Made by a program: the position numbers and the translations under genes
In this document: positions 22,181 through 64,000 of the stretch, piece after piece
How the letters are laid out: each line of letters starts with the position of its first letter
Numbering within the stretch: position 1 is the stretch's first letter
Notes under the pieces: model-generated
Databases searched by the model: none
Seen by the model: only the letters and a program-made list of their open reading frames with translations
Told to the model about the DNA's origin: nothing
Origin: a virus
Length of the DNA: 64,000 nucleotides
Reading direction: 5' to 3' (one strand)
Virus record (IMG/VR): IMGVR_UViG_3300037041_000399
Coordinates: 1 to 64,000 of that record

Positions 22181-22196
22181 CCCGTTAAATTAACCC
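22181..22196 (+). promoter_or_regulatory. Class I motif, copy 3
   Basis: Exact CCCGTTAAATTAACCC upstream of scaffold/capsid; flanked by the inverted repeat GGGAGAC/GTCTCCC. Confidence 0.75.
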
Positions 22197-22265
22197 TCAG
22201 CCGTCTCCCCCTATATTATAATTAATTATAATGATATATAATATAATATATATCTCTTATATAAC

Positions 22266-22281
22266 CCCGTTAAATTAACCC
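22266..22281 (+). promoter_or_regulatory. Class I motif, copy 4
   Basis: Exact 16-mer, 85 bp after copy 3 across an AT-rich spacer. Confidence 0.75.
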
Positions 22282-37100: not shown

Positions 37101-39634
37101 TTAAAGACGCTTTCAAAGGTTTAATGAATCAAGATAAAGCGGATGGTAAGTCTGTAATAGGTACATTTGGCAACAAACTCAAAACATCAATTAAAGACCA
37201 AGTACTAAACACTGTTGCTGATTCATTTACTAATGTACTTGAATTAGGTAAAGGCGGTAAACTTACAAAAGTATTACAAAATGTAGGTAAGAATTTATTT
37301 AGTACTATTGGTTCAGCTGGTAGCGGCATTAAGAAGATTCTTTCAGGCAATATGACTATGGAAGGATTTACGAGTGGTATTAGCGACTGGTGGAGTGGAA
37401 TTACTGGCGGTGATACCACAGATACCTCTAATATGTCACCTGAAGAAATCCAGTTAACAGCTGCTGAGAAGTTTTCTAAAGCTGTCGATAAGTTTGCAAA
37501 TGGTGGTGTAGGCGGTGGCTTAGGTGGTATTGCCAAAGCTGCAGCTGGTGGTGGATTCCTTAGTGGTTTAGGTGATACACTTATGAGTGCCTTGCCGTGG
37601 GTTGCAGGTGGCGCTGGTGTGCTAGGTTTAGGTGCTTTACTGTCAGGCAGTGGAAAAGGGAGTTGGAACGAAGGCACTAAAGGTCTTGGTGGTGATTTCT
37701 TCTCTTCATTTAATGGTGGTAAATCATCTAGTGGAAATCCTACAAGTTTCTTAAATCCTGTTACAGGTATATTTGAAACAATAAGAGAAGGCGGTTCATC
37801 TCTTCTTAGCGGAGTAGGTAAAGCTGCATCTGGTAATTGGAATGCAGATACCTTTGCAGGCATTCGAAGTGGAAACATGGATAAAGGCACTGGAGTGTTT
37901 GATAGTGTTACCAATGGGTTATCTAGCTTATTACCTGGCTCGCAAACAGGAGATATCTCTACGAAGTCTATAACAGCTCTCGGTCAATCTATGCAAAATA
38001 GTTTGCCTGATGCTAAAGTAGAGGGACTATGGGATATTTTATTATCACCGCTTATGTTCTTATTTAAATTACTAAAAGATGGCTTTTTAGGGATAGTAGG
38101 GATGTTTACAGGCGTAGGTCAAGGAGTAGGTACAAGCTCTGGTACTGGTGAAAGCTCTACAAGTCCTTCTGCAGGCAATACATCTAAATCACCATTTAGT
38201 GGTATGTTTGGATTAGCTGCTGGTGGTCAAGTTAAAGGACCAGGGACTCCTACTTCAGATTCTATACCTGCACTACTATCTAACGGAGAGTTTGTAGTAA
38301 ATGCTAAAGCTACTAAAGATCATAGGGATCTTCTAGAAAAGATTAATAGTGGCAAGGTAATTAAACGTTCACTAGGTGGCATGATTGGTATGGGCGCTAG
38401 TTTAGCCGGTACATTTATGAAAGGCAAAACTGGTAGTCTTATTGGCACATTAGGCTCTGGTATTAGTGGCATAATGGGTATGATCGATAAACAGCAAGCC
38501 GCAGCTGCTAGTGAAAAGTTACTTGCAGCAGCTACACACCTAGAATCAGCTGCTACAGCATTAGAAAGTTTTGCAGCTAAGGGTGGTGTAGGTGGTGGTC
38601 TCCAATCAGCTGTCCAAGGTGAAGGTCAAGGCGGAGGTGGCGGTGGTCTGCTGCGAGGCGGTATTAAATCATTAATGAGCCAAGGGTCTAGTGGTGGTAT
38701 CATGGATTCTATTCAAGGCTTCTTTAGTAATGGATTAAATGCTGAGCACGGTACAGATGCACTAGGTGGACAATCATTTGGTGTATTACAATCAGATGCC
38801 AACGCAAGTGTTGGAAGTTATGGTGTTCTTGCTGCTGATGCTAACTCTTCTATCAATGGTGCTGCAGCTGGTAACAGCTTTGGCGTAATGGCTTCTGACG
38901 CTAATGGCGGAGGAATGTTTGATGGCTTAACTAGTATGTTCAGTGAAGGCGGTTCGCTTAGCAATATGTTTGGTGGATTAACCGATGGCATTTCAGGTAT
39001 GTTCCAAGGCTTAGTAGGTGGCGAAGGCGGTGGTGGCATTATGAGCATGTTCCAAGGCTTAGTCGGCGGTGAAGGTGGTGGCGGTATTATGAGCATGTTC
39101 AGCGGCCTCATAGGTGGCGAAGGCGGTGGTGGTATCATGGGTATGTTTAGCGGCCTCTTTGGTGGTGGTGGTGCAGGTGGCGCTCTTGGCGGCATTGGAG
39201 ATATATTTGGCAGTCTTATGAGTATGTTACCATTTGGCTTTGCTGATGGTGGCAGTGTAAGAGGCCCAGGCTCTAGCACCTCTGATTCAATACCAGCTAT
39301 GTTATCTAATGGCGAATTTGTTGTTAACGCAGCATCTACTCGAGAACATAGAGGATTATTAGAACATCTAAATAGCGGTAAGCCTCTGGCTAAACACTAC
39401 CTAGGCGGTTTACACTTAGCTGATGGCGGAATAGCTACTGCAGCTGCGCCTATAATGACCACACCTACTGCTAGTTCTGCCAAGCCGTTACGTAGCAATA
39501 AAGACTCTACAGTAGTAAATTTAAACATAACAGGCGATATATCTCGTCAAACTCGCGCGGAAGTTTACAAGCTAATCCCTAATATAACACAGGGCGTAAA
39601 CACGCATAATAAAGACAGCAACTATAAAGGATAA
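28154..39634 (+). CDS. Tape measure protein (3826 aa) with a lytic transglycosylase-like domain
   Basis: Tape-measure motif QLNQGLSSGALRGEELNSVLEQAP; long hydrophobic middle; SLT-like AVVEHES..FGLGQF..AY (about 35950-36310); twice GPGT/S.TSDSIPA.LSNGEFVVNA. Confidence 0.9.
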   Translation: MSGIVIEVEAKVSQAETSLERLNDVVRNITASLKAVDKGLENLSLKKEVPLDKTEKALNNLSPKIDKLQSSTDKLFKGSSNVDNRYSKEFVNIGVSAEMAGKRVEKAFNDITLKPNDAALKSFSFEIDRTSRKISKQMSEGISKKDLRDTESSLLNINKSITGISGNITSAVGSIGTAIAAFGSIATIGMFVKSLSDITSSFTEIESKIAMVTGRTVAFSEAQQALLKVAAETRTTYGATADAFSGVGRAMKDVGATSEQLFRVTKVLQQSQALSGGSSEGFKAAMMQLNQGLSSGALRGEELNSVLEQAPAIADALARSLHVSVGALKGIAEQGKLTTSVVFSSLLKQADYINDKFKAINPTLGNAMEAGFEGAKRFAFELDKGLGLSQDLAKAVSKLTSGLGTKTSGIRVFAADFDVQLKEAIIRVKSYMQPLTQVVTALGQEFYRVFSSWKIPEGSQKPLDDLIRKFTIFKFVLTHTDPGTDTKILFRKVETAIVDSVKTISDLLDKGIKLSDKFIMPIIDKIKDLYPKARKALLTTLDGLRSVIKESMSVLADGFEIGAEFVKPIIRELTKLPDQLILIFNKVAKALGSAASATSSLADGVADLLDSVTLKVGDLDGIYEYLNSFKDKVITIFFKIWDAVIGHSWWTDTIDSIIDTSKSLWEKASPGLIRFRDSIIALFKTIASTVTTAFNDAMVKLNIEPKSVSFKIPISIDDAKVQFEGVYDSFVKTFDKFKDDFPLLFKAIAAGVGAILVGMFLPSGNFVLLLEAALISASIQSATMFAETIGRDLGDASLLAGLGNNLGAAAGKLFASFLANMPLLVSAFLGFISEFTKEFLKQLPIIGVAFKALFGIAGAFGMAGPLGLVGAIFFGRGILGIMATFGFYTEAITGFMAKMAILGNFFGGGGGLISRLLFGAGRAWHFLPILGLIASLSGAFDALYNDSSLSALIINGGLIYFAIFGKGGLAGFAKIGMLVRANIVGILSEFTATAGLASSIAAGGAFGPMLMAGIRNFRNFFRGVSAMSAMFFSSSLSSWAQYFTRWIAVTGFSGNILRFFRTFYLNIFGPITAASYSFAPLAQSFVAAISAMKAAAVSFIMTARTAGIAMGGWLAALTRMLLGGPGILILVGLIASLFSKSADAAESFREESNKGFFENLTDNIANLDIIGYFRGLKDKLDAIDFGGMLGVNFKVSIYAALTAVTAALMLFSTNVRKTLMLLAGDLLVFSGKALFSIAALFSPVEVLAAGALLLKAGWWAGVNLNRGLTMGFALKDTIISIIMRLQATAALAGAMRTLGITMAVGLLGAFSAEAIGFADFSAMSVLGFTAIAAFIYPILNGLTVIPAAITAAFTGGTIMQAIGVLSARILLMFAPLGLAAAGAFAGAWAGGQFGDDMAMIGGLAGALLAFKFTESIMTGITEFLAVGARLMTLGWVGLALTAAGLIYAWLFGSDSTSLSQDLDSIIEKTRTLFGMKPNPVDFRTGLRLDDLQAAATMGIKIDYKIDPISAALASDSSKEAVTKATEDLAQAIRDAKADWDISGLTQDQRDLLQKKVKATAARVDAASASTPFVFKDFGKNLTQAQRYRPDTLWGQLQRQGAQAALDAEFEVKLKQLSIASRMPWNQTSAARLDLKSQRDAVSLSKDTTYNANYSPLDAETAKLAQLTKGFDNLGPVGPKMMAHLKDTGREIIALTKQINENKYWFWEHPNGKIWENAAPDPKLIAQMKMLRAEYKSTAEDIVRYSTLMKAAQSFAGRISSIASKFDMKGVESKLDTNKIFANSDTAVNRMEKLGEAAERLSKSLEGVFDVKAKNDIILNIEEVVKQKERLKEDSVQSYKYASPVIPKMAEELGLGAGKAAAGLPENISGPVLARMTELKRQREDFLNKPVRPVNPDLVPQDFVKETAQNKHETMVYQGDMRLWQTRKKNQETVIKTLEEEFANNKLGSTQAALIQAKREATKIQMEEPVKPALAMLDAKAQQAKMEKLRIEYKQKLEIYKNDNFEYFDKYMKNLVESFDLGDELRKELWSNVKTKPGQMADVANKLNIDIGDLYSTFGADVAAGLLQQADDVAAAIDRAMATQQYDKLPALKQRKAALTTRMATPEFKSRGAMAESMGLDQSLIPGISTDVLDSLEAGYKKIKEIDTYLEMNKNTISDATYQAKIQEKLNEQLSGKKAALDASFGRPSFELQARIGTNLTGAQLSLISQTDVDNLKAAELNLAKIKLDLDGSNANADTLTDYFKALADEAEARYQASRNAASKTGAGMMQSLADVNFSGASKLNLLPPAIVQNVIKLSNYIKDLRHNLEQPTSPEAFIAINKEIAKTEEALSSIRDQYTSLQDKISSVNEVFGVSFSNIDFVSLGSSLTSTLITVAQSLKTELAKEMEKGFLSVRAESIIKVLDSLTTTGTYLKFFADFKKNARESLTDGMKSAFDKIKSIAPNFGFSQNQFQMMDKGSRDQYSKQASDITALTAIQGLNGLTQNQTDIINQKQPVDEMMKQLIDSFDTNQLKQYEKLTSSPVDLQLKAADIQLEAAKMNLEAVKGKAPEVTTPFKEASKQTTERALATGPRSGVTSLAEMAKDIPWSANAPKPKFRPDVERWDSLIQDAVKEFPRVTVEMVKAVVEHESRGLNIKSGITPKPGYKETSFGLGQFNDATAKTFGVDKTDPASTIRGIAQYLSLNMKTFGNTRDAFRAYAVGPTGAKQGLGQDKADEFMTTLATGRAPKSAPVTTSPELIKPTAESVAKSIEVAVSKQGELSRAFNVDLMARIKEIGKQKPFEAYQLDKLQNQINPNVSTPAELLSTHGAKLGTDIVGQMNETQISLATSLNEKLMQVQQQFNANPSTALQQSITTYSEMLKAFTEGVTADAEELGIAKMVAFSSANSTNISKFLSRFSGISEELVMTMNEADKALAKNMTIIREDLKDKLAADAKAGKSTTATALKILDLSDNISDLGNKAMDAAKEIKTAGESFASGFTSSFKDAFKGLMNQDKADGKSVIGTFGNKLKTSIKDQVLNTVADSFTNVLELGKGGKLTKVLQNVGKNLFSTIGSAGSGIKKILSGNMTMEGFTSGISDWWSGITGGDTTDTSNMSPEEIQLTAAEKFSKAVDKFANGGVGGGLGGIAKAAAGGGFLSGLGDTLMSALPWVAGGAGVLGLGALLSGSGKGSWNEGTKGLGGDFFSSFNGGKSSSGNPTSFLNPVTGIFETIREGGSSLLSGVGKAASGNWNADTFAGIRSGNMDKGTGVFDSVTNGLSSLLPGSQTGDISTKSITALGQSMQNSLPDAKVEGLWDILLSPLMFLFKLLKDGFLGIVGMFTGVGQGVGTSSGTGESSTSPSAGNTSKSPFSGMFGLAAGGQVKGPGTPTSDSIPALLSNGEFVVNAKATKDHRDLLEKINSGKVIKRSLGGMIGMGASLAGTFMKGKTGSLIGTLGSGISGIMGMIDKQQAAAASEKLLAAATHLESAATALESFAAKGGVGGGLQSAVQGEGQGGGGGGLLRGGIKSLMSQGSSGGIMDSIQGFFSNGLNAEHGTDALGGQSFGVLQSDANASVGSYGVLAADANSSINGAAAGNSFGVMASDANGGGMFDGLTSMFSEGGSLSNMFGGLTDGISGMFQGLVGGEGGGGIMSMFQGLVGGEGGGGIMSMFSGLIGGEGGGGIMGMFSGLFGGGGAGGALGGIGDIFGSLMSMLPFGFADGGSVRGPGSSTSDSIPAMLSNGEFVVNAASTREHRGLLEHLNSGKPLAKHYLGGLHLADGGIATAAAPIMTTPTASSAKPLRSNKDSTVVNLNITGDISRQTRAEVYKLIPNITQGVNTHNKDSNYKG
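38999..39190 (+). repeat. 48-bp coding tandem repeat (about 4 copies) in the tape measure C-terminus
   Basis: MFQGLVGGEGGGGIMS / MFQGLVGGEGGGGIMS / MFSGLIGGEGGGGIMG / MFSGLFGGGG. Confidence 0.85.
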
Positions 39635-51105: not shown

Positions 51106-51558
51106 ATGTACTATTTATTAATATTTGACAAGAATACAAAACTTTCAACAGGATCTGCCATTGTATCCGAATTGGAGAAAACTCCTGACTATATTCAAGT
51201 AGAACTTTCTGAGGATGAATTTTATAACCTTAAGAATAACTCTAATACGTTAAAGTATGAAAATGGGGAGATTAAAAAATATCTGCCAAGACCTTCGTTT
51301 GCGCACTACTGGGATAATAATCTCAATGAATGGTTATTAGACACTGCTCTCGAATTTAGTTTAAAATCTGATGAAGTAAGAGATTTACGTCTAGCTAAGT
51401 TAAACGAGTTAGATAAATTTACACAGAACCCCCTTCGTTGGATGAGCTTGTCAGATGAGCTTAAGAATCAGTTAGCGGTTTATAGGCAAGCTTTATTAGA
51501 CGTACCTCAACAAGAAGGTTTCCCATTAACTATAACTTGGCCGGAGAGTCCAGTATGA
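51106..51558 (+). CDS. Tail fibre assembly chaperone
   Basis: PRPSFAHYWD..W..VR..R...L..; YRQALLDVPQQEGFP..I.WP. Confidence 0.8.
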   Translation: MYYLLIFDKNTKLSTGSAIVSELEKTPDYIQVELSEDEFYNLKNNSNTLKYENGEIKKYLPRPSFAHYWDNNLNEWLLDTALEFSLKSDEVRDLRLAKLNELDKFTQNPLRWMSLSDELKNQLAVYRQALLDVPQQEGFPLTITWPESPV

Positions 51559-51737
51559 GTTATTTATTTGCACGATTAAAAGAGCCATCTACATGGTTTG
51601 GTATTATCTCATCTACTCTAGCATCATTAAGTGCTTTTAAAGTGGTAGAATTGTCACCAGAACAAATGGACGGTATATTAGCATTGTCTGTTGCCATCTT
51701 AGGTGGCGGACATGTAACTTCAAAGGATCCTGAATAA
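51555..51737 (+). CDS. Putative holin
   Basis: 60 aa, RLKEPSTW.G start, two hydrophobic segments, charged C-terminus. Confidence 0.6.
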   Translation: MSYLFARLKEPSTWFGIISSTLASLSAFKVVELSPEQMDGILALSVAILGGGHVTSKDPE

Positions 51738-51745
51738 AGGAGATT

Positions 51746-51770
51746 GCCCTGACTTCGGTTGGGGCTTTTT
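51746..51770 (+). terminator. Intrinsic terminator
   Basis: GCCCTGAC-TTCG-GTTGGGGC followed by TTTTT. Confidence 0.75.
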
Positions 51771-51773
51771 AAT

Positions 51774-52292
51774 ATGAAATTTAGAAAATCAAACATAAAA
51801 GAATTAAATAAATATTATGATGTAGCAATTGAGTGCTCATTATCAAGTAGAGTACCTGAATTTACATTAGACAAAGATTATGTACTTAAGGTGATATCAG
51901 ATCTAATGCATGGAGAATACTTTAGAGTAATAGAATACAAAGATGAAGTTGTTGGCTGGATGGCGGCTAATAAGAATAATGTACAGTTATATAATACCAG
52001 AGATGTATTATCAGTCACTAGTTATCAATGTATACTCAAAGGTCGTAAGGCAATTGAGGCACTAATAGATATTCATGAGGATCTATATGATTTTGCTATA
52101 TCTAGAAAGTATGAGCTAGTTGTAACCAATTCAGTACTTAATTCAAGGAATACATTTAATCGAATACTTACGCAAGAAGGCTGGCTGGATCGCAACAGCG
52201 TGTTACTGCGAAAAACCCCCCATTATTTGGCCAGTAGCGGGGGCAGACGTGCCGTTCGGCCTCAGACCATTACGGAAGCCATGGGGCGGTGA
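51774..52292 (+). CDS. GNAT-fold-like protein
   Basis: MKFRKS..(FRVIEYKDEVVGWM)..FNRIL..EGW pattern; weak. Confidence 0.45.
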   Translation: MKFRKSNIKELNKYYDVAIECSLSSRVPEFTLDKDYVLKVISDLMHGEYFRVIEYKDEVVGWMAANKNNVQLYNTRDVLSVTSYQCILKGRKAIEALIDIHEDLYDFAISRKYELVVTNSVLNSRNTFNRILTQEGWLDRNSVLLRKTPHYLASSGGRRAVRPQTITEAMGR

Positions 52293-52455
52293 AAACGGGG
52301 TAGAGAGGGGCAGATTTGCAAACTGGTCGCCTGTGGCACGCGGGGCGTGGGGCATGGCTGAGGGATCGGGGCGGCAGTTGCGGGGCAAGACGGGTGGTTT
52401 CTGGTTGCAGAATGGGTAGTTCTGTGGCTGGTTATCGCCCGTTTTTTACGCACCA
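52210..52455. other. GC/G-rich island at the late-to-early junction
   Basis: Abrupt GC rise in an AT-rich genome; seven GGGGC elements on the + strand. Confidence 0.7.
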
Positions 52456-52459
52456 CAAA

Positions 52460-52475
52460 CCCGTTAAATTAACCC
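52460..52475 (+). promoter_or_regulatory. Class I motif, copy 5
   Basis: Exact 16-mer at the start of the early-gene block. Confidence 0.75.
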
Positions 52476-52510
52476 TTCTCCGTTCCCCCTATATTATTAA
52501 TTCTAATAAT

Positions 52511-52545
52511 GCGGAAATAATAGTATCTTATATGAAGTACTATAA
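52511..52545 (+). promoter_or_regulatory. Class II motif, copy 1 (putative early promoter)
   Basis: GCGGAAA-TAATA-GTATCTTATATGAAGTAC-TATAA, 20 nt before an ATG. Confidence 0.65.
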
Positions 52546-52564
52546 TAACCTTTGGAGATACATT

Positions 52565-52960
52565 ATGTTAAGATTAATTGCTACAAAAGATCGTAAAACA
52601 ATTGCTGTTGTTTATGGTAACATCGTTGCAGATATGGCTGAGTTTTTACCTGTGTGGCGGTCACACAAGTGGTTTAACATTTATACAAACTTGGAATACA
52701 AGTCTTTAGAGGAATTCCTTTGGAAATCTCTAGAGGAGAATGATTCGTTGTTTCAATATAGACCTTGGGATGATCATTACTATGTGCCAACTACAATGAC
52801 TATTAGACACAACGGGCATGAGGCTTATAGCAGATTTATGCAGAATATTGATTGTACTTATACTTTGTATACTGTGTATGAAGACTTGACGGGCGTCGTT
52901 GCTAACTTTAAAGATAAGAAAGCTATTAAGAAATGGCTTAAAGAACAGGGGATTAAATAA
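52565..52960 (+). CDS. Early hypothetical protein
   Basis: ATG at 52565 after TTTGGAG; the upstream extension in the ORF track is unlikely. Confidence 0.6.
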   Translation: MLRLIATKDRKTIAVVYGNIVADMAEFLPVWRSHKWFNIYTNLEYKSLEEFLWKSLEENDSLFQYRPWDDHYYVPTTMTIRHNGHEAYSRFMQNIDCTYTLYTVYEDLTGVVANFKDKKAIKKWLKEQGIK

Positions 52961-53166
52961 TGAAATATGAAGTAGTTATACTCAATCAGAATGCTGATCT
53001 TTATACCAAGACAAGCTTATTAGACGCTTACTTAAACTTTGAAAAGTACACAAGTAAGATTGTAATTGCGGTAGACAAAGAAACAGGTGCTTTTAAACAT
53101 GTTGCTAATGTACAGCAATTAAGAGAAGTATCTGCAAGATTATTTTATATGGGAGAGTTCAAATGA
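52960..53166 (+). CDS. Early hypothetical protein
   Basis: 68 aa, TAATG coupling. Confidence 0.6.
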   Translation: MKYEVVILNQNADLYTKTSLLDAYLNFEKYTSKIVIAVDKETGAFKHVANVQQLREVSARLFYMGEFK

Positions 53167-53462
53167 GTACTGTAATGTTTATGATCGATGCAGTTTTAGA
53201 TATACGCGTTAGAACACACAGTGTGTTTGATTATGTTCTTTTTGAAGCTGAGTGCTACGATGAATGTATTACACTCCTGGACAGTGCTGATGCACGTCTT
53301 AGGGTTGGTGACAACTATTCATACAGCTGGAATCACGTTCACTGGGACGGACAAAGGCTGGAATCTTTTATAACTTTGTTAGATCTTATTGAGCATGACA
53401 AGTACAAACTTAACGTCCTAACAGAAGGACATCTATTTCAGCAAGGGGTATTAGTATTATGA
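53163..53462 (+). CDS. Early hypothetical protein
   Basis: 99 aa, ATGA coupling, GGAG RBS. Confidence 0.6.
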   Translation: MSTVMFMIDAVLDIRVRTHSVFDYVLFEAECYDECITLLDSADARLRVGDNYSYSWNHVHWDGQRLESFITLLDLIEHDKYKLNVLTEGHLFQQGVLVL

Positions 53463-53617
53463 GTGAATGGTATAGCTTTATTGAAGCAATGTTAACAATT
53501 GGTTTTTATTGTGTTTATGTGTTTTACAATGTGTTTGCAGAGCATTGCGAAGGACAGCGTAAGTATCGTAAAGTGCGTAGCTGGAATCGTTCAGCTATGC
53601 AAAAAGATTATAAATAA
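53459..53617 (+). CDS. Small early protein (not in ORF track)
   Basis: ATGA coupling; MSEWYSFIEAMLTIGFYCVYVFYNVFAEHCEGQRKYRKVRSWNRSAMQKDYK. Confidence 0.5.
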   Translation: MSEWYSFIEAMLTIGFYCVYVFYNVFAEHCEGQRKYRKVRSWNRSAMQKDYK

Positions 53618-53621
53618 AAAC

Positions 53622-53656
53622 GCGGAAAATGGGGTATCTTATATGAAGTACAATAA
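53622..53656 (+). promoter_or_regulatory. Class II motif, copy 2
   Basis: GCGGAAA-ATGGG-GTATCTTATATGAAGTAC-AATAA, intergenic. Confidence 0.65.
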
Positions 53657-53691
53657 GGTACCTCAATCAATTAATTATTTGGAGTATTATC

Positions 53692-54126
53692 ATGAACCTA
53701 TTGAACACAACAACAGCAACTACAGTAAACAACGTTAGTATCCGTTTCGCAGACAATGGCACACGTATTGAAATGCGTGGTGAGTTTGCAGCCATCCGCG
53801 AAGTAATCGCAAGCAACCCAGGAGTATGCATCGACATGGACATGTATCAAGAAGGCCTCGACGAAGTAGTCGGAGGTATCTTCAATCGTGATGCACAACG
53901 CATCATCCTTGAGTTGACCTCAATGGGTGTTGAGCTTGAGAGAGACGGCTACAACACTTTCCGTGAAACAGGCCTAATGAATAACGGCTTTGTTCGCATT
54001 CGTGTATCAGAAGTAAATCTTCAGTTGCTAGCTGGAGAATCAATAGCTCGCCAAACAGCTGTAGCGGATGCAATCGGCGCATCAGTTACAGGCTCAATGC
54101 GTGGCTATGTAGTCTCAATGTGGTAA
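53692..54126 (+). CDS. Early hypothetical protein
   Basis: 144 aa, TTTGGAG RBS. Confidence 0.65.
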   Translation: MNLLNTTTATTVNNVSIRFADNGTRIEMRGEFAAIREVIASNPGVCIDMDMYQEGLDEVVGGIFNRDAQRIILELTSMGVELERDGYNTFRETGLMNNGFVRIRVSEVNLQLLAGESIARQTAVADAIGASVTGSMRGYVVSMW

Positions 54127-54169
54127 ATGTATAAGATAGTGCCAACAACTAACTTTAAAGGTGAACAAC

Positions 54170-54316
54170 ATGAATCCAGTACAAGCAGCACAAGCAGCAG
54201 TAGACGCGAAATTATTAGCAATGAAGATCGAACATGATGCAAGAATTAAAGCATTAGATGAAGATAAAGAATTCGCTAAAATGCTAGCAGAAATGCAAGC
54301 TAAGCTTAAATGCTAA
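54170..54316 (+). CDS. 48-aa coiled-coil early protein (not in ORF track)
   Basis: AAAGGTG RBS; MNPVQAAQAAVDAKLLAMKIEHDARIKALDEDKEFAKMLAEMQAKLKC. Confidence 0.55.
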   Translation: MNPVQAAQAAVDAKLLAMKIEHDARIKALDEDKEFAKMLAEMQAKLKC

Positions 54317-54320
54317 TAAA

Positions 54321-54348
54321 AGACCTGAGTAGGTCTCTAAACTGCTTA
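54321..54348 (+). ncRNA. Small H-type pseudoknot motif, copy 1
   Basis: AGAC-CTGAGTAG-GTCT-CTAAAC-TGCTTA; loop TGAGTA pairs with TGCTTA; same geometry at 59406. Confidence 0.55.
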
Positions 54349-54403
54349 GTGTCTAAGGGATGTGTATCCCATACTGATGATGGTTCAAAAGAACCGAAAC
54401 ACT
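54348..54403 (+). ncRNA. Type III hammerhead ribozyme
   Basis: Stem III AGTGT/ACACT; GUC cleavage triplet (after C54353); stem I TA(A)GGGAT-GTGT-ATCCC(A)TA; core CTGATGA; stem II GGTTC-AAAA-GAACC; GAAA. Confidence 0.85.
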
Positions 54404-54423
54404 TAATTATTTGGAGTATTACT

Positions 54424-54600
54424 ATGTTTAACAAAATCAAAAATTATTTAAATGGCAACAGAAAAGAAATCGATGAAGCCAGAGAATTCCTTATCACATG
54501 GCAAGAAGGCCAAAAAGCTGCTGATGAACTAGTAGCTAAGTTTGAAGCAAAAGCCTTAGTAATGAAACTTGAAAGATTAGCGAGAGAACGTCATGCTTAA
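54424..54600 (+). CDS. Early hypothetical protein
   Basis: ATG at 54424 after TTTGGAG (MFNKIKNYL...). Confidence 0.6.
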   Translation: MFNKIKNYLNGNRKEIDEAREFLITWQEGQKAADELVAKFEAKALVMKLERLARERHA

Positions 54601-54784
54601 TGCTAAAGTGTTGGACTACACTAAAAAGTTCGGGAAAGAAGTTCTTAATGTTCTTCAAACACCTGTCTTTGAGATTAAAATTGGGGAACCCAAACCTCAA
54701 GAACCAACACAAGAAGTTAATGATAAAGCAGATGAATTAGCTGCTATGGTCGAACTCTTACAACGAAAATTTAATGGCTTATAA
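54593..54784 (+). CDS. Early hypothetical protein
   Basis: 63-aa overlapping ORF. Confidence 0.55.
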   Translation: MLNAKVLDYTKKFGKEVLNVLQTPVFEIKIGEPKPQEPTQEVNDKADELAAMVELLQRKFNGL

Positions 54785-54795
54785 AGGATATTATT

Positions 54796-55053
54796 ATGTT
54801 TACTTTTATTTCACACTTGTTCATGTCTCCATTTGAAATTTTTATGGAAACACTATTAAGCCCAATGGGTTTAATTATGATTGTAACGTTTGCATTAGCC
54901 ATTGTTGGTTACTTCAAAGTACGTCAAGCCAGAAAGAATCATGCGCACATTGTTGTTATCAACTTGTGGGAATTGATCTTCTGGGTATCAGTTGTTATAA
55001 CTTCAGGTTGTAACTTAGTATATGCAATCATGCATCCTTCAGTCTTTTGGTGA
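54796..55053 (+). CDS. Early membrane protein (2 TM)
   Basis: AAGGA RBS; two hydrophobic segments. Confidence 0.6.
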   Translation: MFTFISHLFMSPFEIFMETLLSPMGLIMIVTFALAIVGYFKVRQARKNHAHIVVINLWELIFWVSVVITSGCNLVYAIMHPSVFW

Positions 55054-55056
55054 TTT

Positions 55057-55227
55057 ATGAAATTAAAATTTGCTTTCTATACATTGCTAACTATTCTAGT
55101 AGCAATTACAATGCTGTATGTAGGTGCGCTTCTTTACAAAGTAGCGTTGTTGTTAATCGCGGTATTATTACTAATCATCGGATACCAAGTATCTGAATTA
55201 ACACGGAGATTTACAAATGGCAGCTAA
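55057..55227 (+). CDS. Small hydrophobic membrane protein (not in ORF track)
   Basis: MKLKFAFYTLLTILVAITMLYVGALLYKVALLLIAVLLLIIGYQVSELTRRFTNGS. Confidence 0.5.
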   Translation: MKLKFAFYTLLTILVAITMLYVGALLYKVALLLIAVLLLIIGYQVSELTRRFTNGS

Positions 55228-55534
55228 CATAAGGCTTCAAGGTTTCTATCCAGTAGCAACTGAAAAGGTTTTAAATGAAGAAGCTCCTGGGGATCTATTC
55301 TTATCTCCTTTAGTGTATAGGCATACCGTGCGTGAAGTTGATGCAAGTCAGTTAGTTGTAATGGAAGATGTAGAAAAATTCATGTGTGGTTCCGGATGGG
55401 ACTTCGCAGATGTAGTAGCTGTAGCAGATTTAACAGGAACAATTCCAATACCATTTTATGTGTTGAAGGAAAAGATTCCAAGGCTTTTAACCTTGGTTAA
55501 TAGGTACAAACCAAGATTTATAGAAACTGTGTAA
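55217..55534 (+). CDS. Early hypothetical protein
   Basis: 105 aa, GGAG RBS. Confidence 0.6.
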   Translation: MAANIRLQGFYPVATEKVLNEEAPGDLFLSPLVYRHTVREVDASQLVVMEDVEKFMCGSGWDFADVVAVADLTGTIPIPFYVLKEKIPRLLTLVNRYKPRFIETV

Positions 55535-55540
55535 AACAAA

Positions 55541-55595
55541 CCCTCTCTGGCTCCTTCGGGAGCTGGGGAGGGCTTTCTCTCTTATTTTTTTTTTT
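55541..55595 (+). terminator. Strong hairpin/terminator ending the first early block
   Basis: CCCTCTCTGGCTCC-TTCG-GGAGCTGGGGAGGG followed by a pyrimidine/T11 tract. Confidence 0.75.
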
Positions 55596-55792
55596 CTCAA
55601 ACTGCAAACTTTGTAACCTTAGCTCATAACTGATGCCTTCGGGCATCGAATCTTTGTAGTCTACCAGGACAGCTATGAAGAATATTCTACAGGATTCGAT
55701 TCTGTTATGTGCTTTAATTTTGTTTAATGGCATTCGTATTGAAACATTTACGATGTTTATCTTTTTAACCTTAATACTACCTAGGAATCATA

Positions 55793-58012
55793 ATGCGGAA
55801 TAAGTTATTAAAGTCTTTACGTACAAGAATTGCTGTAGAAATTGCACCACAATCTCCAATTAAGTTTTTAAAGAAGCTTGACATAGAAGAGCATCTAGAT
55901 GAGATTATTGCAAACACTTACTTGTACACAAGACCTAAAAAGGGTTCTGACAAGGAAATTATAATGTCAGAAGTAATTTGTATTATTGGGCACAATATGC
56001 GAAAGGGCGAAAAGAAAGATTCAGCTACAGCAGCCAGATGTGGTGCTTTTATTTTATACTCATTTGCAGAGCTAGGCCTCACAGAAATAGTAATGACTAG
56101 TGCAGCTAATGGCCACGGCACATACGTAGTTAAAGTCGTAGATGAAAAGAGTATGCAGGAATTATGGGAAACAGTATCTAGACAGGGTGGTAAGGGTAAA
56201 TTACCATCAGCAACACCATATGCAGATTGGACAAGTTTTAGGCATGATACAGGTGCCGTTTTAGTTAAGACACAATCAAAAGCTGTAGCAGAAATCTTAA
56301 CACCTGAAACACATCCAATTGTATTTGAGTCTATTAATAAAAGTCAAAGAGTAGGTTGGCTGATTAACAAAGAAGTCTATAATATTGCTAAGTGGGCTTT
56401 AAGTAACAAAACAGAAGCATTCAGTGATATTTGGGAACAGCATAATCCACAAGCACGTACAACTAAATTAAGAGAGACTAAAGCTATTCTTAGTATTGCA
56501 GACAAGTTTACTGATATTCCTTTTTACCATTTGTACTATCTAGACTTTAGAGGTCGTAAATATCCAACTACAGCGTATCTACATGAGCAGTCTTCTGACA
56601 TTGCTAAGGGCTTATTAATGCGTCAAGACAAGAAGGTTATTGGACAAGATGGTTTCTTTTGGCTATGCGTATCAATTGCAAGTAACTGGGCAGGTAACTC
56701 AGGTAGAGAAGATGGTGCTAAGACAGATAAAATACCTCTAAAAGACAGATATCAGTGGGTACTAGACAATGAAGAAATTCTGACAGCGTATGCACTTTCG
56801 CCTAAGCTAAATCAAGGCTGGATGGAAGCTGATAAGCCTTGGCAATTCTTAGCTGCTTGTATTGAGCTTAAGAACGCGTTAAGTATGGGTTCTAGTTATC
56901 TTCAGTATGAGTCTCATGTAGAGTGTTTCATTGACGGTTCTACTAATGGCTCACAGCATTTAAGTGCTCTCACTAGAGATGAAATTACAGCACCATATGT
57001 TAATTTAGTACCATTAGAAATGCCTGGAGATTTATATGCATACGTGGCTAACCATGTGTGGAGTAAAATCTCGACTATTGTAAATGCAATGTCGCCAAGC
57101 TTAGTATTAGAGTGTGAAGAATTTATTGATGGATTAATAGCGTTAAAAAGAAAGATTGTTGCGGCTGAACCCAAATCAGAGTTACGTAGTCAATTAGTGT
57201 CACAAATAAGAGCATACAAAACAAAATGGACAGATGTCGGTGAAAAGGCTTCTCCAGTATTTTGGCATAGAATTAAAGATAGTAAGCAACGTAGAAAGAT
57301 TGTTAAAAGGAATGTAATGACATTACCGTATGGCGGTTCAGGGTATGGCTTGTCAGAACAACAAATTGATGATTCTAAAAAGCATGGTATAGAATTGTTA
57401 ATGAATATGGAACACAAATGGGCATCATGGATGGGACGATTAGTATTTGAAGATGCTAAAGAATCTTTACAAAGACCTATGATGCTATTAGAAGTATTTG
57501 AGAAAGCTGGAGCAGCTGCTGAGAAGAAAGGTAAATTCTTAGAGTGGACAGTGCCTGTTACAAATTTCCCTGTAGTGCAAAATTATACAGAAGGTCGTAC
57601 TAAAAAGATACATATTCAATGGGGTCCGAGAATTGGCATTAGGAGTGAAACCACCGGATACTTTGGAAATGATATACAATTACATATATGTTTTATTGAG
57701 GATCAAGTACCCTCAAAAGGAAAGCAGTCCCAAGGAGCAGCACCAAATGTAATCCATTCATTGGATGCAGCGCACTTAGCGATGACAACAGCTAAATGCG
57801 ATTTTCCTATTACGACTATACATGATTCCTATGGCTGCCTGCTTGCAGATATGCCTAAGCTATATCAATGTGTGCGTGATACTTTTGTCGAGCTTTACCA
57901 AGAGAATCCTTTGTTTCCCCTGATCGATAAGATAAATGGCGATTTAAGCTATTTAGATATGGGTGAGCTGGATGTTAATTTAATTCTAGAAAGTGAATAT
58001 GCTTTCGCATAG
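55793..58012 (+). CDS. T7-family single-subunit DNA-directed RNA polymerase (739 aa)
   Basis: DFRGRKY, DKPWQFLA, DGSTNGSQHL (A), RKIVKRNVMTLPYG (B), PNVIHSLDAAHL, IHDSYG (C). Confidence 0.95.
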   Translation: MRNKLLKSLRTRIAVEIAPQSPIKFLKKLDIEEHLDEIIANTYLYTRPKKGSDKEIIMSEVICIIGHNMRKGEKKDSATAARCGAFILYSFAELGLTEIVMTSAANGHGTYVVKVVDEKSMQELWETVSRQGGKGKLPSATPYADWTSFRHDTGAVLVKTQSKAVAEILTPETHPIVFESINKSQRVGWLINKEVYNIAKWALSNKTEAFSDIWEQHNPQARTTKLRETKAILSIADKFTDIPFYHLYYLDFRGRKYPTTAYLHEQSSDIAKGLLMRQDKKVIGQDGFFWLCVSIASNWAGNSGREDGAKTDKIPLKDRYQWVLDNEEILTAYALSPKLNQGWMEADKPWQFLAACIELKNALSMGSSYLQYESHVECFIDGSTNGSQHLSALTRDEITAPYVNLVPLEMPGDLYAYVANHVWSKISTIVNAMSPSLVLECEEFIDGLIALKRKIVAAEPKSELRSQLVSQIRAYKTKWTDVGEKASPVFWHRIKDSKQRRKIVKRNVMTLPYGGSGYGLSEQQIDDSKKHGIELLMNMEHKWASWMGRLVFEDAKESLQRPMMLLEVFEKAGAAAEKKGKFLEWTVPVTNFPVVQNYTEGRTKKIHIQWGPRIGIRSETTGYFGNDIQLHICFIEDQVPSKGKQSQGAAPNVIHSLDAAHLAMTTAKCDFPITTIHDSYGCLLADMPKLYQCVRDTFVELYQENPLFPLIDKINGDLSYLDMGELDVNLILESEYAFA

Positions 58013-60764: not shown

Positions 60765-60780
60765 CCCGTTAAATTAACCC
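60765..60780 (+). promoter_or_regulatory. Class I motif, copy 6
   Basis: Exact 16-mer upstream of SSB/DNA polymerase; 23-nt identity with 238-260. Confidence 0.75.
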
Positions 60781-60810: not shown

Positions 60811-61281
60811 ATGGCAAATTTATATAATTTGGAAATACACCACCCAAACCTTGTAAAAGGTAAGAATAACTATGATCCAAGTAAACCTAAATGGTCTGCT
60901 ATGTTAGTAACTAAAAAAGAAGCACAAGCAAAAGAAGTTGCAAGTATGGGAATTAAAGTTACTGAGTTTAAAACTAACGAGGGTAAGATAGCTTGGAAAT
61001 TTAACGTAAGCAAGAATGTAACAAAGTTTACAGGAGAGCCAAGTACCCCTATTAGTGTTGTAGATATGGACGATAATCCATTGCCGAAAGATAATATTGG
61101 TAATGGTAGTATTGTAAATGTCAGATTATTTGAACGAGAATACGTAAACAAAGCCGGTAAGCCTGCAATAAGTTATATACTAATGGCAATACAAATTGTT
61201 AAATTGATTGAGTATAAGCCTACAAAACCTGGTGATTTTCCTCCTGCTGCTATTGAGTACGAAGATGGAGATGTATTCTAA
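60811..61281 (+). CDS. Single-stranded DNA-binding protein (T7 gp2.5-like)
   Basis: IGNGSIVNV..L.AIQIVKLIEY; acidic tail ending in an aromatic residue (EYEDGDVF). Confidence 0.75.
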   Translation: MANLYNLEIHHPNLVKGKNNYDPSKPKWSAMLVTKKEAQAKEVASMGIKVTEFKTNEGKIAWKFNVSKNVTKFTGEPSTPISVVDMDDNPLPKDNIGNGSIVNVRLFEREYVNKAGKPAISYILMAIQIVKLIEYKPTKPGDFPPAAIEYEDGDVF

Positions 61282-61781
61282 TGGCACGCTACAAGTATAC
61301 TGTAGTAGATGGACTTGGCATTGAAGGCGCAGAATATTTCGACTTTAAAGAGATCCCTATTAATGCTATTATGGGAGACTATGGGCACGTTATATCTACA
61401 CGTATCGAAGACGGCACAAAAGCAGGTGCCTTAGTGACCAGAGATGATTATGAAGCTTGGCGTGAAATGCTTGATCGCTGTCATTGGCTCCCAAAGTCTG
61501 AAATTGTACAAGCTGTAGATCCAAAGCATTATAAAGGCTACGTAGAAGAGTTCCAGTGGATCGATACTATGAGCCGTATCCCTACGTTAAAAGATCCTAA
61601 GATATTTTCTGGTGCTGTAGAAATGCAAATTAGAAAATACCTTGACCGCAATGGTCAGAAAGATGATGTTGTACAAGAGCTACTTAAAGCGCGATGGTAT
61701 TTAAACTACTTGATTGCTTATAAGATTGCAGACAGACCAATCATGGTAGATGAGGTCGAAGATATTATATCTTCAATTTAA
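61281..61781 (+). CDS. DUF3310-like protein
   Basis: VDPKHYK..KYL.R.G.K...QELLKARWYLNYLI. Confidence 0.65.
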   Translation: MARYKYTVVDGLGIEGAEYFDFKEIPINAIMGDYGHVISTRIEDGTKAGALVTRDDYEAWREMLDRCHWLPKSEIVQAVDPKHYKGYVEEFQWIDTMSRIPTLKDPKIFSGAVEMQIRKYLDRNGQKDDVVQELLKARWYLNYLIAYKIADRPIMVDEVEDIISSI

Positions 61782-61785
61782 CAAC

Positions 61786-61820
61786 AAAAGGGCGTTTCGT
61801 TTAATACGGAGCGCCTTTTA
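61786..61820 (+). terminator. Hairpin/putative terminator
   Basis: AAAAGGGCGTTTCGT-TTAAT-ACGGAGCGCCTTTT. Confidence 0.55.
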
Positions 61821-61829
61821 TTCGAGGCT

Positions 61830-63779
61830 ATGATGAATTATATATTCGATGTAGAGACAGATGGTCTCTTACCTAATGTAACACGCATGTGGATTATGGT
61901 CGTTAAAGATCTAAGTACAGGAAAGAAAACACGCTACTTAGAAGGAGACTTTGGTTGGAAAACTCTATTTAACAATGCTAACCAGCTAATTGGGCACAAT
62001 ATAATTGGGTATGATATTTGTGTGCTAGAGAAATTGTTTGGATACAAAGTACCTGAGAAGACTAAAATAGTTGACACATTAATTCTTTCTCAAGTATTAG
62101 ACTACAAACGTTTCGGAGATAAAGGACACTCACTAAAAGTATGGGGTGAACATCTAGGGTATCCTAAGCAAGAATTTGAAGACTGGACACAGTATTCAGA
62201 AACTATGGCTGAGTATTGCGAAAACGACGTAGAGGTTAACTTCAGAATCCTAAAAGACTTACGGGATGAACTTAAGAAAGGTGAAGAGAAGTATCCAGAG
62301 CAGTTTAAAGTCTTGACACAATATATCAAGGTAGAACATGCTGTAGCTAAATGGTGCGCTGAAGCTAGTCTTCATGGGTGGCCTTTCGATACTAATAAGG
62401 CTTATGAACTTTACGATGAACTCGAAGCAAAGATGAATAGTACTTATGAGATTCTGAATAAAAAGCTAGGTCTTAAGGTAGTTGCAGTTGACAAGAAGCT
62501 TGGTGTAGTAGAAGCTAAAAAGCCTAAGTACAAGAAAGATGGTAGTTATGATGCGCATACAGCTAGGTGGTTTGATGTCAATCCTTGGAGTGGCTTTGAG
62601 CCTGAAGATAGAATTGTTGATGGCGAGTATTGTCGTATTACGATTGAACCTCTTAGTCTTAATTCTGTAACTGATGTAAAGGTATTCTTGTATAGGCACG
62701 GCTGGAAACCAACAGATTGGAACTACAAGCTAACTGAAGACTTAAAGCGTGAAAGAACAACACCTAAGATTACTGAAGATAGTTTAGAATTCTTAGGTGG
62801 TGATGGCAAGTTGTATAGTAACTATTTAACTGAAAAAGCAAGGCATTCGATTGTAAAAACATGGTTGGAGAATGTAGATGGCAATAGTAGACTTCATGGA
62901 GACTGTATGGTTATCGGGACCCCTAGTATGCGTTCACGTCATAGTATTATTGTTAATATCCCTAGTCCTGATGCTCCATACGGGAAACAAATGAGAGCAT
63001 TGTTTAAATGTATCCCTGGTTGGAAAGTAGTAGGCTGTGATAGTGCTGGTAATCAAGCTAGAGGTCTAGCACATTTCTTAGAAGATGAAGGCTTTACAGA
63101 TATCTTACTTAATGGTGATATTCATACCTTTAATGCAGATACTCTCAATCGTATCTTGAAAGAAACACTTAATATAGATTGGAATGACTACTGGATTAAG
63201 CAAGGTGTAACGGCAGATGAGAAGCATACTCTAGAAGAGAATCTAGCATTAAGAAGAAGAAATTGTGCTAAGCGTGTATTATACGCTTTCTTATTTGGTG
63301 CCTCAGGTGGTAAGCTTTGGAGCTATATGTTCAATGGTGAAATGAATGATACAAAGGGTGCTAAAGTTAAGAAAGAGTTTATTAAAGCCGTGCCAGGATT
63401 CAAGGCACTCTTAGATAAGCTTGAAGCTATCTTTGGTAAAACGAAACAGAGAGGACTTGGGTATATCCCTAGTCTAGCGCACAATAGGGTATACGTAGAC
63501 TCCTTTCATAAACTATTGGTGTATCTCTTACAATCCGCAGAAAAGATTACTTGTGGTGCAGCTTGTATGCTAGTACAACAGTATCTTAAAGAAGAGAAAA
63601 TTCCGTATCAACCTTTGATTATGTACCATGATGAATTCCAATTAATGGTACCAGAGGAATATGCAGAACGTGCAGTAGAGCTTGGCATTAAGGCTTTCCA
63701 AGAAGGCCCTAAACTATTTGGAGTCACTATCATGGATGGCTCTGGTTCCTTTGGCGATAATTGGTTGGAGACACACTAG
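61830..63779 (+). CDS. DNA polymerase, family A (T7 gp5-like)
   Basis: Exonuclease motifs DVETDG, GHNIIGYD, YCENDV; polymerase motifs CDSAGNQAR, AKRVLYAFLFG, YHDEFQ. Confidence 0.93.
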   Translation: MMNYIFDVETDGLLPNVTRMWIMVVKDLSTGKKTRYLEGDFGWKTLFNNANQLIGHNIIGYDICVLEKLFGYKVPEKTKIVDTLILSQVLDYKRFGDKGHSLKVWGEHLGYPKQEFEDWTQYSETMAEYCENDVEVNFRILKDLRDELKKGEEKYPEQFKVLTQYIKVEHAVAKWCAEASLHGWPFDTNKAYELYDELEAKMNSTYEILNKKLGLKVVAVDKKLGVVEAKKPKYKKDGSYDAHTARWFDVNPWSGFEPEDRIVDGEYCRITIEPLSLNSVTDVKVFLYRHGWKPTDWNYKLTEDLKRERTTPKITEDSLEFLGGDGKLYSNYLTEKARHSIVKTWLENVDGNSRLHGDCMVIGTPSMRSRHSIIVNIPSPDAPYGKQMRALFKCIPGWKVVGCDSAGNQARGLAHFLEDEGFTDILLNGDIHTFNADTLNRILKETLNIDWNDYWIKQGVTADEKHTLEENLALRRRNCAKRVLYAFLFGASGGKLWSYMFNGEMNDTKGAKVKKEFIKAVPGFKALLDKLEAIFGKTKQRGLGYIPSLAHNRVYVDSFHKLLVYLLQSAEKITCGAACMLVQQYLKEEKIPYQPLIMYHDEFQLMVPEEYAERAVELGIKAFQEGPKLFGVTIMDGSGSFGDNWLETH

Positions 63780-64000
63780 TGTTTGAATGTGATTGTTGCG
63801 GTAAGATATTTCACAATGCACCATCAATTATTGATGGCATTGACAAGATGTTTTGTTCTGGGCGTTGTTCTAAGCTTGAACAAGGCATGGTAACTGAGTA
63901 CACTCATGCACAAAGAGAAGCTGTTAATAAGCATCTCGATAAAAAGAGTCTACACCCTAGAAAGAAACCTACAATAACTAATACACTAGCCTTATCACCT
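63779..64000 (+). CDS. Cys-rich (TRASH/zinc-finger-like) protein, partial, runs off the window
   Basis: GTG overlapping the polymerase stop; MFECDCCGKIF..MFCSGRCSK, open to the window end. Confidence 0.5.
   Translation, partial: MFECDCCGKIFHNAPSIIDGIDKMFCSGRCSKLEQGMVTEYTHAQREAVNKHLDKKSLHPRKKPTITNTLALSP

Follow-up and report, generated by a model that had tools for sequence, protein, structure and literature searches.

A compact T7-type RNA polymerase of a long-tailed phage and its proposed place in a two-polymerase relay

Why would a long-tailed phage carry, in addition to an RNA polymerase (RNAP) that is fused to a head protein, a second and free enzyme of the same superfamily? This question is raised by the open reading frame (ORF) at positions 55793-58012 (+ strand) of IMGVR_UViG_3300037041_000399, a 78,236-bp IMG/VR phage record that is rated as complete by CheckV; the window analyzed here consists of bases 1-64000 of this record, and positions refer to it unless stated otherwise. 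The ORF is open over its full length and encodes a protein of 739 aa (P0001). We hold, with moderate confidence, that P0001 is an active, compact RNAP of the T7 type that takes the second, non-virion part in a relay of two polymerases. Its presumed partner is a divergent T7-superfamily RNAP fused to the MuF minor head protein (P0002, 1771 aa; 16196-21511, + strand).

The free polymerase and its presumed, MuF-fused partner

A preliminary description of this locus, made from the sequence alone, had recognized in the 739-aa protein a T7-family RNAP with canonical motifs that is shorter than the T7 enzyme (883 aa), and both statements are borne out. P0001 matches the Pfam family PF00940 with an E-value of 1.9e-68 (231.7 bits at a cut-off of 22 bits) and PHROG 414 'RNA polymerase' with an E-value of 5e-121, and its sequence alignment with T7 RNAP spans the region from T7 residue 294 to the C-terminus. 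The catalytic motifs DFRGRKY (T/DxxGR), IDGSTNGSQH (motif A), RKIVKRNVMTLPYGG (motif B) and IHDSYG (motif C) are all kept and align with T7 residues R425, D537, K631/Y639 and H811/D812; the catalytic residues are invariant across 38 homologues. The protein also keeps the HS-D--HL block and ends with YAFA, where T7 RNAP has FAFA. BLAST scores P0001 at 193 bits against T7 RNAP, at an identity of about 28%, and finds no match to gp15/gp16 of phage N4.

An AlphaFold2 model of P0001, built from the alignment of the 38 homologues, has a mean predicted local distance difference test score (pLDDT) of 88, and its overall fold matches that of T7 RNAP, the C-terminal foot included. The best Foldseek matches of the predicted model are T7 RNAP chains (E-value 1e-29 and TMq 0.76 to the promoter complex 1cez), and VIA-align yields Z-scores of 35-43 to T7 RNAP, with 658 residues aligned to 1cez, and of 20.6 to the N4 mini-virion RNAP (mini-vRNAP) and 19.6 to N4 RNAPII. 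In this structural alignment, model residues 1-739 map onto T7 residues 77-883; T7 residues 1-76 are missing, and with further deletions the N-terminal domain is about 140 aa shorter than that of T7 RNAP. A β-hairpin at aa 97-115 is a possible intercalating hairpin, and the AT-rich recognition loop could not be placed in the model. The hairpin of the specificity loop (approximately aa 601-635, encoded at 57593-57697 on the + strand) was delimited through alignments and the model strands E602-609 and E627-634; it is 13 residues longer in P0001 than in T7 RNAP, in the polymerase of the roseophage DSS3_VP1 and in those of the relatives G026 and G029, and its residues G611, P612, N626 and Q629 are invariant in the 38 homologues. 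The ratio of non-synonymous to synonymous substitution rates (dN/dS) of the polymerase gene is 0.07 against a relative with 85% identity and 0.03 against one with 98% identity; the gene is under strong purifying selection. Because of its motifs, its T7-like predicted fold and this low dN/dS, P0001 is very probably an active enzyme.

In the relatives G010, G023, G024, G029 and G030, the free polymerase gene is broken at aa 512-514, inside motif B. Some of the inserts are in frame and yield intein-like ORFs of 987-994 aa, others are out of frame, and the insert of G010 shares a repeat of about 50 nt with inserts in the MuF-RNAP gene of the same genome. These splits are inserts at motif B and do not correspond to the N4 arrangement, in which the second polymerase is divided into two subunits.

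The MuF-fused protein P0002 matches PF04233 (E-value 1.3e-13, aa 142-246) and, in two stretches, PF00940 (E-value 1.8e-11). Its gene lies between those of the portal protein and an HNH endonuclease, with the scaffold and capsid genes further on. The polymerase motifs TxxGR, A, B and C and the C-terminal YG(I/V)G are kept as far as gp108 of DSS3_VP1, and a model of the polymerase part, of moderate confidence (pLDDT 67.7), matches T7 and mitochondrial RNAPs over its full length with E-values of about 1e-11. Judged by their sequences and models, both polymerases look catalytically competent. The strings DGSTNGSQHL and IHDSYG in P0001 and DASSSGAQII and IHDAFF in the MuF protein, quoted earlier as a sign that the two enzymes are very divergent, are indeed present, and the divergence is real: the two proteins can be aligned at motifs A and C only, with 22-24% identity. 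Between motifs B and C, P0002 carries about 230 extra residues (approximately aa 1103-1333; window 19502-20194) that are helical and of low confidence in the model; most relatives, with proteins of about 1540 aa, are devoid of this segment.

Among named phages, the roseophages DSS3_VP1 and DSS3_PM1 (Naomviridae), which are also the closest cultured relatives, come nearest. In DSS3_VP1, the RNAP gp080 is 33% identical to P0001, and gp108 (1463 aa; L004 21242-25633) is about 30% identical to P0002 and contains all four polymerase motifs, while the public record names it 'head morphogenesis' only and annotates no polymerase. A partial record, EBPR siphovirus 1, encodes a MuF-RNAP that shares 57% identity and is interrupted by an HNH gene. 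The related, long-tailed Pelagibacter phage Kolga possesses a homologous free RNAP (gp44, 762 aa) together with an unfused MuF protein of 633 aa; a search for repeated motifs in its genome returned AT-rich noise only. Database searches yielded hundreds of clusters for each of the two enzymes: the metagenomic family of P0001 comprises more than 120 clusters at an identity of at least 56% and 1165 proteins at E-values of at most 1e-20, and that of P0002 comprises 410 proteins at E-values of at most 1e-5. Nearly all matches of P0002 contain both PF04233 and PF00940, and the only name they bear is 'SPP1 gp7 family head morphogenesis protein'. Among records that are at least 90% complete, the fusion is present in all three found via the free enzyme, and the free enzyme in all nine found via the fusion; the pair co-occurs in 12/12 near-complete relatives, and DSS3_VP1 likewise holds both enzymes.

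A phylogeny of the two RNAPs with the T7 and N4 enzymes, which the preliminary description had called for, places them in two separate deep lineages. A quick maximum-likelihood tree unites the free enzymes of the clade to which the window belongs with DSS3_VP1 gp080 and Kolga gp44 (support 95), in a group that is the sister of the T7 clade; the MuF-fused enzymes, gp108 included, form a clade of their own (support 100). Since two separate deep clades each contain a DSS3_VP1 copy, the polymerase pair is, on the evidence of the sequences, old and not the product of a recent duplication. The N4 mini-vRNAP joined the MuF enzymes in this tree, a grouping that we attribute to the meeting of long branches and do not rely on. 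The suggestion that the system is built from parts different from those of N4 is upheld by the structural comparisons, in which the free enzyme reaches Z-scores of 35-43 to T7 RNAP against 19.6 to N4 RNAPII and the MuF-fused one resembles T7 and mitochondrial RNAPs.

Promoter-like motifs and a terminator-like gate

Every sizeable ORF of the genome lies on the + strand, and two classes of promoter-like motifs, both intergenic and co-oriented with the genes, subdivide it. Class I, CCGTTAAATTAACCC, was detected by exact k-mer counting as a strongly repeated intergenic motif; it occurs seven times in the genome, always on the + strand, where no copy is expected by chance. One pair (starting at 246 and 346; 246-360) precedes the module of the terminase, the portal protein and the MuF-RNAP, and a second pair (starting at 22182 and 22267; 22182-22281) precedes the scaffold and major capsid genes. 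Single copies stand at the head of the early block (52461-52475), ahead of the module encoding a single-stranded DNA-binding protein (SSB), a nucleotide kinase and the DNA polymerase (60766-60780), and ahead of a further block of small genes (genome position 74860, + strand). The motif holds an 11-nt palindrome, GTTAA-A-TTAAC, with asymmetric but conserved flanks (CCC..CCC). Three of the seven copies (246-290, 22182-22226, 52461-52505) lead into a conserved tail, CCGT-N1-2-CCCCCT-N2-ATTAT(A/T)AAT, which is also present in G004 and G005; at two of these tailed sites, a plain class I copy lies approximately 90-100 nt further on, and the tailed element may represent a third kind of promoter.

Class II, CGGAAA-N6-GTATCTTATATGAAG, occurs twice in the genome, again with no copy expected by chance, and both copies lie in the early block: the first (52511-52548, + strand) 36 nt after the class I copy at the block head and 17 nt before the first early gene, the second (53622-53659, + strand) shortly before an early gene. 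The spacing of class II to start codons is 17-45 nt. The conserved part ends with TATAT, after which a purine-rich start follows, an arrangement that resembles the layout of T7 and SP6 promoters; in SP6, it reads ..CACTATA followed by GAAG. Class II is kept in 14 genomes of the clade to which the window belongs and, as a variant, in DSS3_VP1, and both classes are conserved among relatives with no more than 52-85% identity between their free polymerases. Measured from the free polymerase gene, the closest class II copy is 0.8-6.2 kb upstream in 14 of 15 genomes, on the same strand and with neither class I nor another conserved motif in between; in the fifteenth, this order holds only when the linear record is joined at its ends. 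The position of class II in these 14 of 15 genomes places the second polymerase gene, as in the N4 relay, inside the region that early promoters would serve. The promoter type of N4, a DNA hairpin with a 5-7 bp stem and a 3-nt loop, is represented by neither class: class II yields weak folds (-1.6 to -3.5 kcal/mol) that differ between its two copies, the 4-bp stem of class I reaches -0.5 kcal/mol, and since neither produces a stable DNA hairpin, the N4 promoter mechanism is inapplicable here.

The two-class layout is repeated in DSS3_VP1. Its class II variant (..GCATCTATAATGAAG) is found at 35809 and 36256, where it heads the block that ends with the RNAP gene gp080, and again at 67793. Its class I analogue is a different, 23-nt sequence, ATAGGGTGCGTTAAAGAGGGGGA, with a T3-like start region and no palindrome; about 14 copies stand at module heads, and none lies between 29.4 and 45.9 kb, the region of the early block and the RNAP gene.

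The early block itself (52565-55534, + strand) comprises about 11 small ORFs, two of which resemble membrane proteins; a PHROG scan of ten of them gave no informative match. The polymerase gene had been placed at the end of this block, in the position of T7 gene 1. It does follow these small orphan genes, but a terminator-like gate (T1; 55541-55595, + strand) intervenes. Directly after the last early ORF, the gate begins with a hairpin of 14 pairs, nine of them G-C, closed by a UUCG loop (55541-55572), which a pyrimidine spacer and a run of 11 T follow. A 197-nt leader (55596-55792, + strand) with a second UUCG hairpin (55631-55648) and neither a class I nor a class II motif then leads to the polymerase gene; this leader is kept in relatives of 98% identity and is absent in G004, G010 and DSS3_VP1. 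An equivalent hairpin with a long T-run is found directly before the polymerase gene in G004, G005, G006, G010 and DSS3_VP1, and at a distance of some 150 bp upstream in G026; in G004, G010 and DSS3_VP1, it abuts the ribosome-binding site and leaves no space for a promoter. Since the polymerase gene has no class I or class II site of its own and lies just behind the gate, its mRNA must come from transcripts that cross the gate. Terminator-like sites are enriched around the polymerase gene (16 found, 5.9 expected). Rfam searches returned nothing at gathering thresholds in the whole window and the remaining genome, and nothing even at E-values up to 1 in the interval 51500-56000.

The proposed relay and its alternatives

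How might the two enzymes and the two motif classes belong together? In the relay that we propose, the MuF-fused polymerase would be packaged at the portal and would exit the capsid along with the DNA. As the position and conservation of class II suggest, it would then initiate at this motif (..GTATCTTATAT followed by GAAG), which occurs in the small-gene block only. The mRNA of the free polymerase would arise through read-through of the hairpin and T-run of the gate, which would hold the level of the enzyme low or delay its appearance. Finally, the 739-aa enzyme would read the class I copies heading the replication, accessory, packaging and capsid-tail modules, an assignment that has support from covariation, and one of the modules headed by class I encodes the next generation of the MuF-RNAP.

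For the assignment of motifs to enzymes, three lines of evidence from the sequences point the same way: polymerase genes preceded by class II only, the presence of class I at late modules, and the covariation of class I with the specificity loop of the free enzyme. Since the free polymerase genes of G006 and DSS3_VP1 stand behind class II only, the enzyme that reads class II must exist before the free polymerase does. With respect to covariation, the five class I-containing genomes that were examined, and likewise the 38 homologues, all encode the specificity loop that is 13 residues longer than that of T7 RNAP; G026 and G029, which are devoid of class I, possess a short loop of different residues, and the short loop of DSS3_VP1, whose class I sequence is a different one, differs again. 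Class II is retained in G026 and G029, and the equivalent region of their MuF enzymes is free of insertions and deletions and 79% identical to that encoded in the window. The presence of class I tracks the loop variant of the free enzyme, and class II is constant where the loop region of the MuF enzyme is; this amounts to support, not proof.

The preliminary description had proposed that the virion-borne MuF-RNAP transcribes the early genes, including the free polymerase gene, and that the latter's product then serves the replication and morphogenesis genes. In silico this scheme finds partial support, as two competent-looking enzymes co-occur in 12/12 genomes, class II precedes the early block only, and class I precedes the replication and morphogenesis modules, among them the one with the MuF-RNAP gene; the description had overlooked the conserved terminator-like gate and the fact that the early block is itself headed by class I.

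Several observations weigh against the relay. In most genomes the early block, too, is headed by a class I copy, which blurs the split. The motif does not change between phages whose polymerases share only 52-57% identity, a constancy uncommon among T7-type promoters; the start region downstream of it shows no conservation, and its 11-nt palindrome would also suit a dimeric regulator. Neither exact 12-mers nor intergenic 9-mers revealed a replacement for class I in G026 and G029, and the number of independent events behind the covariation is small. That the MuF fusion is packaged and ejected would follow from what is known of MuF/SPP1 gp7 proteins rather than from this phage. The metatranscriptome material consists of contigs only: four lake-water RNA libraries of one study contain contigs that are 90-99% like the window, including stretches across the hairpin and the polymerase gene, and as these contigs reveal neither ends nor strand and may stem from DNA carry-over, we do not use them as evidence of transcription.

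An unlikely alternative follows the logic of T7 and Xp10: the host RNAP, alone or with a phage factor, would read the early block and the polymerase gene, the 739-aa enzyme would perform all phage-specific transcription, and the MuF-fused polymerase would do something else, for instance draw DNA into the cell, prime replication or transcribe late genes before packaging. Phage Kolga, with its free RNAP and unfused MuF, indicates that the free enzyme can work without a fused partner; in addition, a perfect TATAAT lies inside the class II variant of DSS3_VP1, and the tail of the three tailed class I copies (..CCCCCT-N2-ATTAT(A/T)AAT) scores 9/12 as a sigma-70 site. However, sigma-70-like matches around the polymerase gene occur about as often as chance would produce them (42 against 39.1 expected), class II is devoid of a -35-like element, and its -10-like part in the clade of the window (TTATAT or TATATG) is poor. 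The conservation of class II runs up to the purine start, as in promoters of phage polymerases, and the motif is constant over lake and marine phages; moreover, all catalytic motifs of the fused enzyme are kept across an identity of about 30%.

We give little credence to the idea that the motifs are not promoters at all; class I would then serve a dimeric regulator as its operator, class II would act in the RNA as a leader or processing element, and the polymerases would be redundant, or one of them mainly a primase. The class I palindrome and the location of class II 17-45 nt before start codons would fit this idea, but the strict co-orientation of both classes with the genes, the asymmetric and conserved flanks of the palindrome, and the class I analogue of DSS3_VP1, a plain, palindrome-free promoter of the T3 type, speak against it, and the joint retention of two highly divergent enzymes in 12/12 genomes argues against redundancy. 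Hardly any credence is due to a reversed assignment, with the MuF-fused enzyme reading class I in all modules and the 739-aa enzyme class II: the start region of class II (TATAT followed by GAAG) is the more T7/SP6-like one and the free enzyme the more T7-like of the two, but with class II alone before the polymerase genes of G006 and DSS3_VP1 nothing could make the first mRNA, the presence of class I follows the specificity loop of the 739-aa enzyme and not that of the MuF enzyme, and it is unlikely that a few injected molecules would carry out all late transcription.

If the proposed relay operates, an N4-like program built from non-N4 parts is at work in a large group of aquatic long-tailed phages, which have solved the problem of protein delivery by fusing an enzyme to the portal-bound MuF protein. 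The relay would offer two compact and orthogonal polymerase-promoter pairs; at 739 aa, and at 688 aa in relatives, the free enzyme ranks with the shortest of the T7 type that we encountered in this analysis, and the terminator-like gate before its gene would be a simple, conserved control point. The relay is directly testable, since DSS3_VP1 and DSS3_PM1 grow on Ruegeria pomeroyi. A farther-reaching reading, which we put forward only tentatively, is that long-tailed phages of 60-110 kb may transcribe their whole genomes independently of the host RNAP through two single-subunit enzymes, with the MuF fusion delivered through the long non-contractile tail and the hairpin/U-run gate acting as the timing switch; the gate would then be treated differently by the two enzymes or be overcome by an early anti-terminator. 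This reading covers phages that are abundant in lakes and the sea, including the cultured Naomviridae with deoxyuridine-containing DNA (dU-DNA). If so, no smaller transcription system that is fully self-contained would be known in tailed phages, and theirs would be a single-subunit parallel to the two-polymerase systems of the dU-DNA phages AR9 and PBS2.

Related systems and genomic setting

Taken alone, the polymerase gene adds one more T7-type enzyme, and it is the pair that is of greater interest. A literature search, with most subscription journals outside its coverage, found no description of a MuF-RNAP fusion or of this polymerase pair. Two T7-superfamily polymerases in one phage are already known from N4, in which the virion RNAP gp50 is followed by RNAPII, formed by gp15/gp16 (PMC4496689). 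The phage studied here shares with N4 the presence of two such enzymes, the first presumably delivered by the virion to a few early sites and the second encoded in or next to the early region. It differs from N4 in that P0001 is a single polypeptide rather than a gp15/gp16 heterodimer, in that the first enzyme is a MuF fusion of 1771 aa instead of a free protein of 3500 aa, and in that N4 is a podovirus that uses stable DNA-hairpin promoters.

With T7 RNAP (gene 1; PDB accession codes 1cez and 1h38), P0001 has in common the PF00940 domain, the catalytic motifs, the aromatic-A-F-A foot, the specificity-loop hairpin and a gene position after the small early genes and before the replication genes. 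Unlike the T7 gene, that of P0001 resides in a long-tailed phage, behind a terminator-like gate and paired with a second phage polymerase, and it is preceded by phage-type rather than sigma-70-type motifs. The Xanthomonas phage Xp10 is a siphovirus that uses a T7-like RNAP for part of its program. Xp10 starts with the host RNA polymerase and is not known to have a virion polymerase. The likeness to Xp10 as a long-tailed phage with a T7-type polymerase is one of description only; the phage is named in PMC4331800.

The closest counterparts remain DSS3_VP1 and DSS3_PM1, which share the gene order, both enzymes, the two motif classes and the hairpin before the RNAP gene, and differ in the class I sequence and the short specificity loop. 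These members of the Naomviridae are dU-DNA siphoviruses, and the term 'RNA polymerase' appears nowhere in the main text of their description (PMC8323127). The phage studied here also has the gene set of a long tail (major tail protein, tape measure protein, J-like tail protein and MuF) and neither the short-tailed virion nor the T7-type gene set of the Autographiviridae. Its tape measure protein of 3826 aa, followed by a J-like tail protein of 2504 aa (window 28154-39634), predicts a very long tail.

The genome has a GC content of 0.37 and a terminal repeat of 127 bp, and a scan for tRNAs found none. In a PHROG scan downstream of the free polymerase gene, seven of ten ORFs had no informative match. 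The replication module (window 60811-64000, continued at L005 1761-10576) has the gene order of the dU-DNA Naomviridae: a gp2.5-like SSB, a nucleotide kinase, a family A DNA polymerase, a nucleoside triphosphate (NTP) pyrophosphohydrolase and an exonuclease, along with a primase-helicase, a ribonucleotide reductase, a ligase and a polynucleotide kinase; no dCMP deaminase was found among the ORFs scanned. A gate-like, long and G-U-rich hairpin with a UUCG loop and 16 T at genome positions of approximately 78040-78120 (L005 approximately 16040-16120) ends the replication and accessory region just before the terminal repeat. In G026 and G029 (L174-L183), which have no class I, several elements composed of a hairpin and ..C(C/T)TATTTTTTTTTT lie directly before ribosome-binding sites, and the early block of G029 contains a repeated ..GAGAGACAATTCCGTCTCTC.. 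element.

The late region of the tail genes is closed by a hairpin and T-run at 51746-51765 (+ strand), with a tail fibre assembly gene just upstream. Between this terminator and the head of the early block lies a G-rich non-coding stretch (52190-52460) with a GC content of 0.59-0.67 and repeated GGGGCA-N-TT..GC units, which is partly kept at the equivalent place in G004 and G026. The folding of the sequence at 52185-52460 is no better than that of shuffled sequence (z -0.88). Packaging or replication could start at this stretch, in which case the early block would lie beside a genome end.

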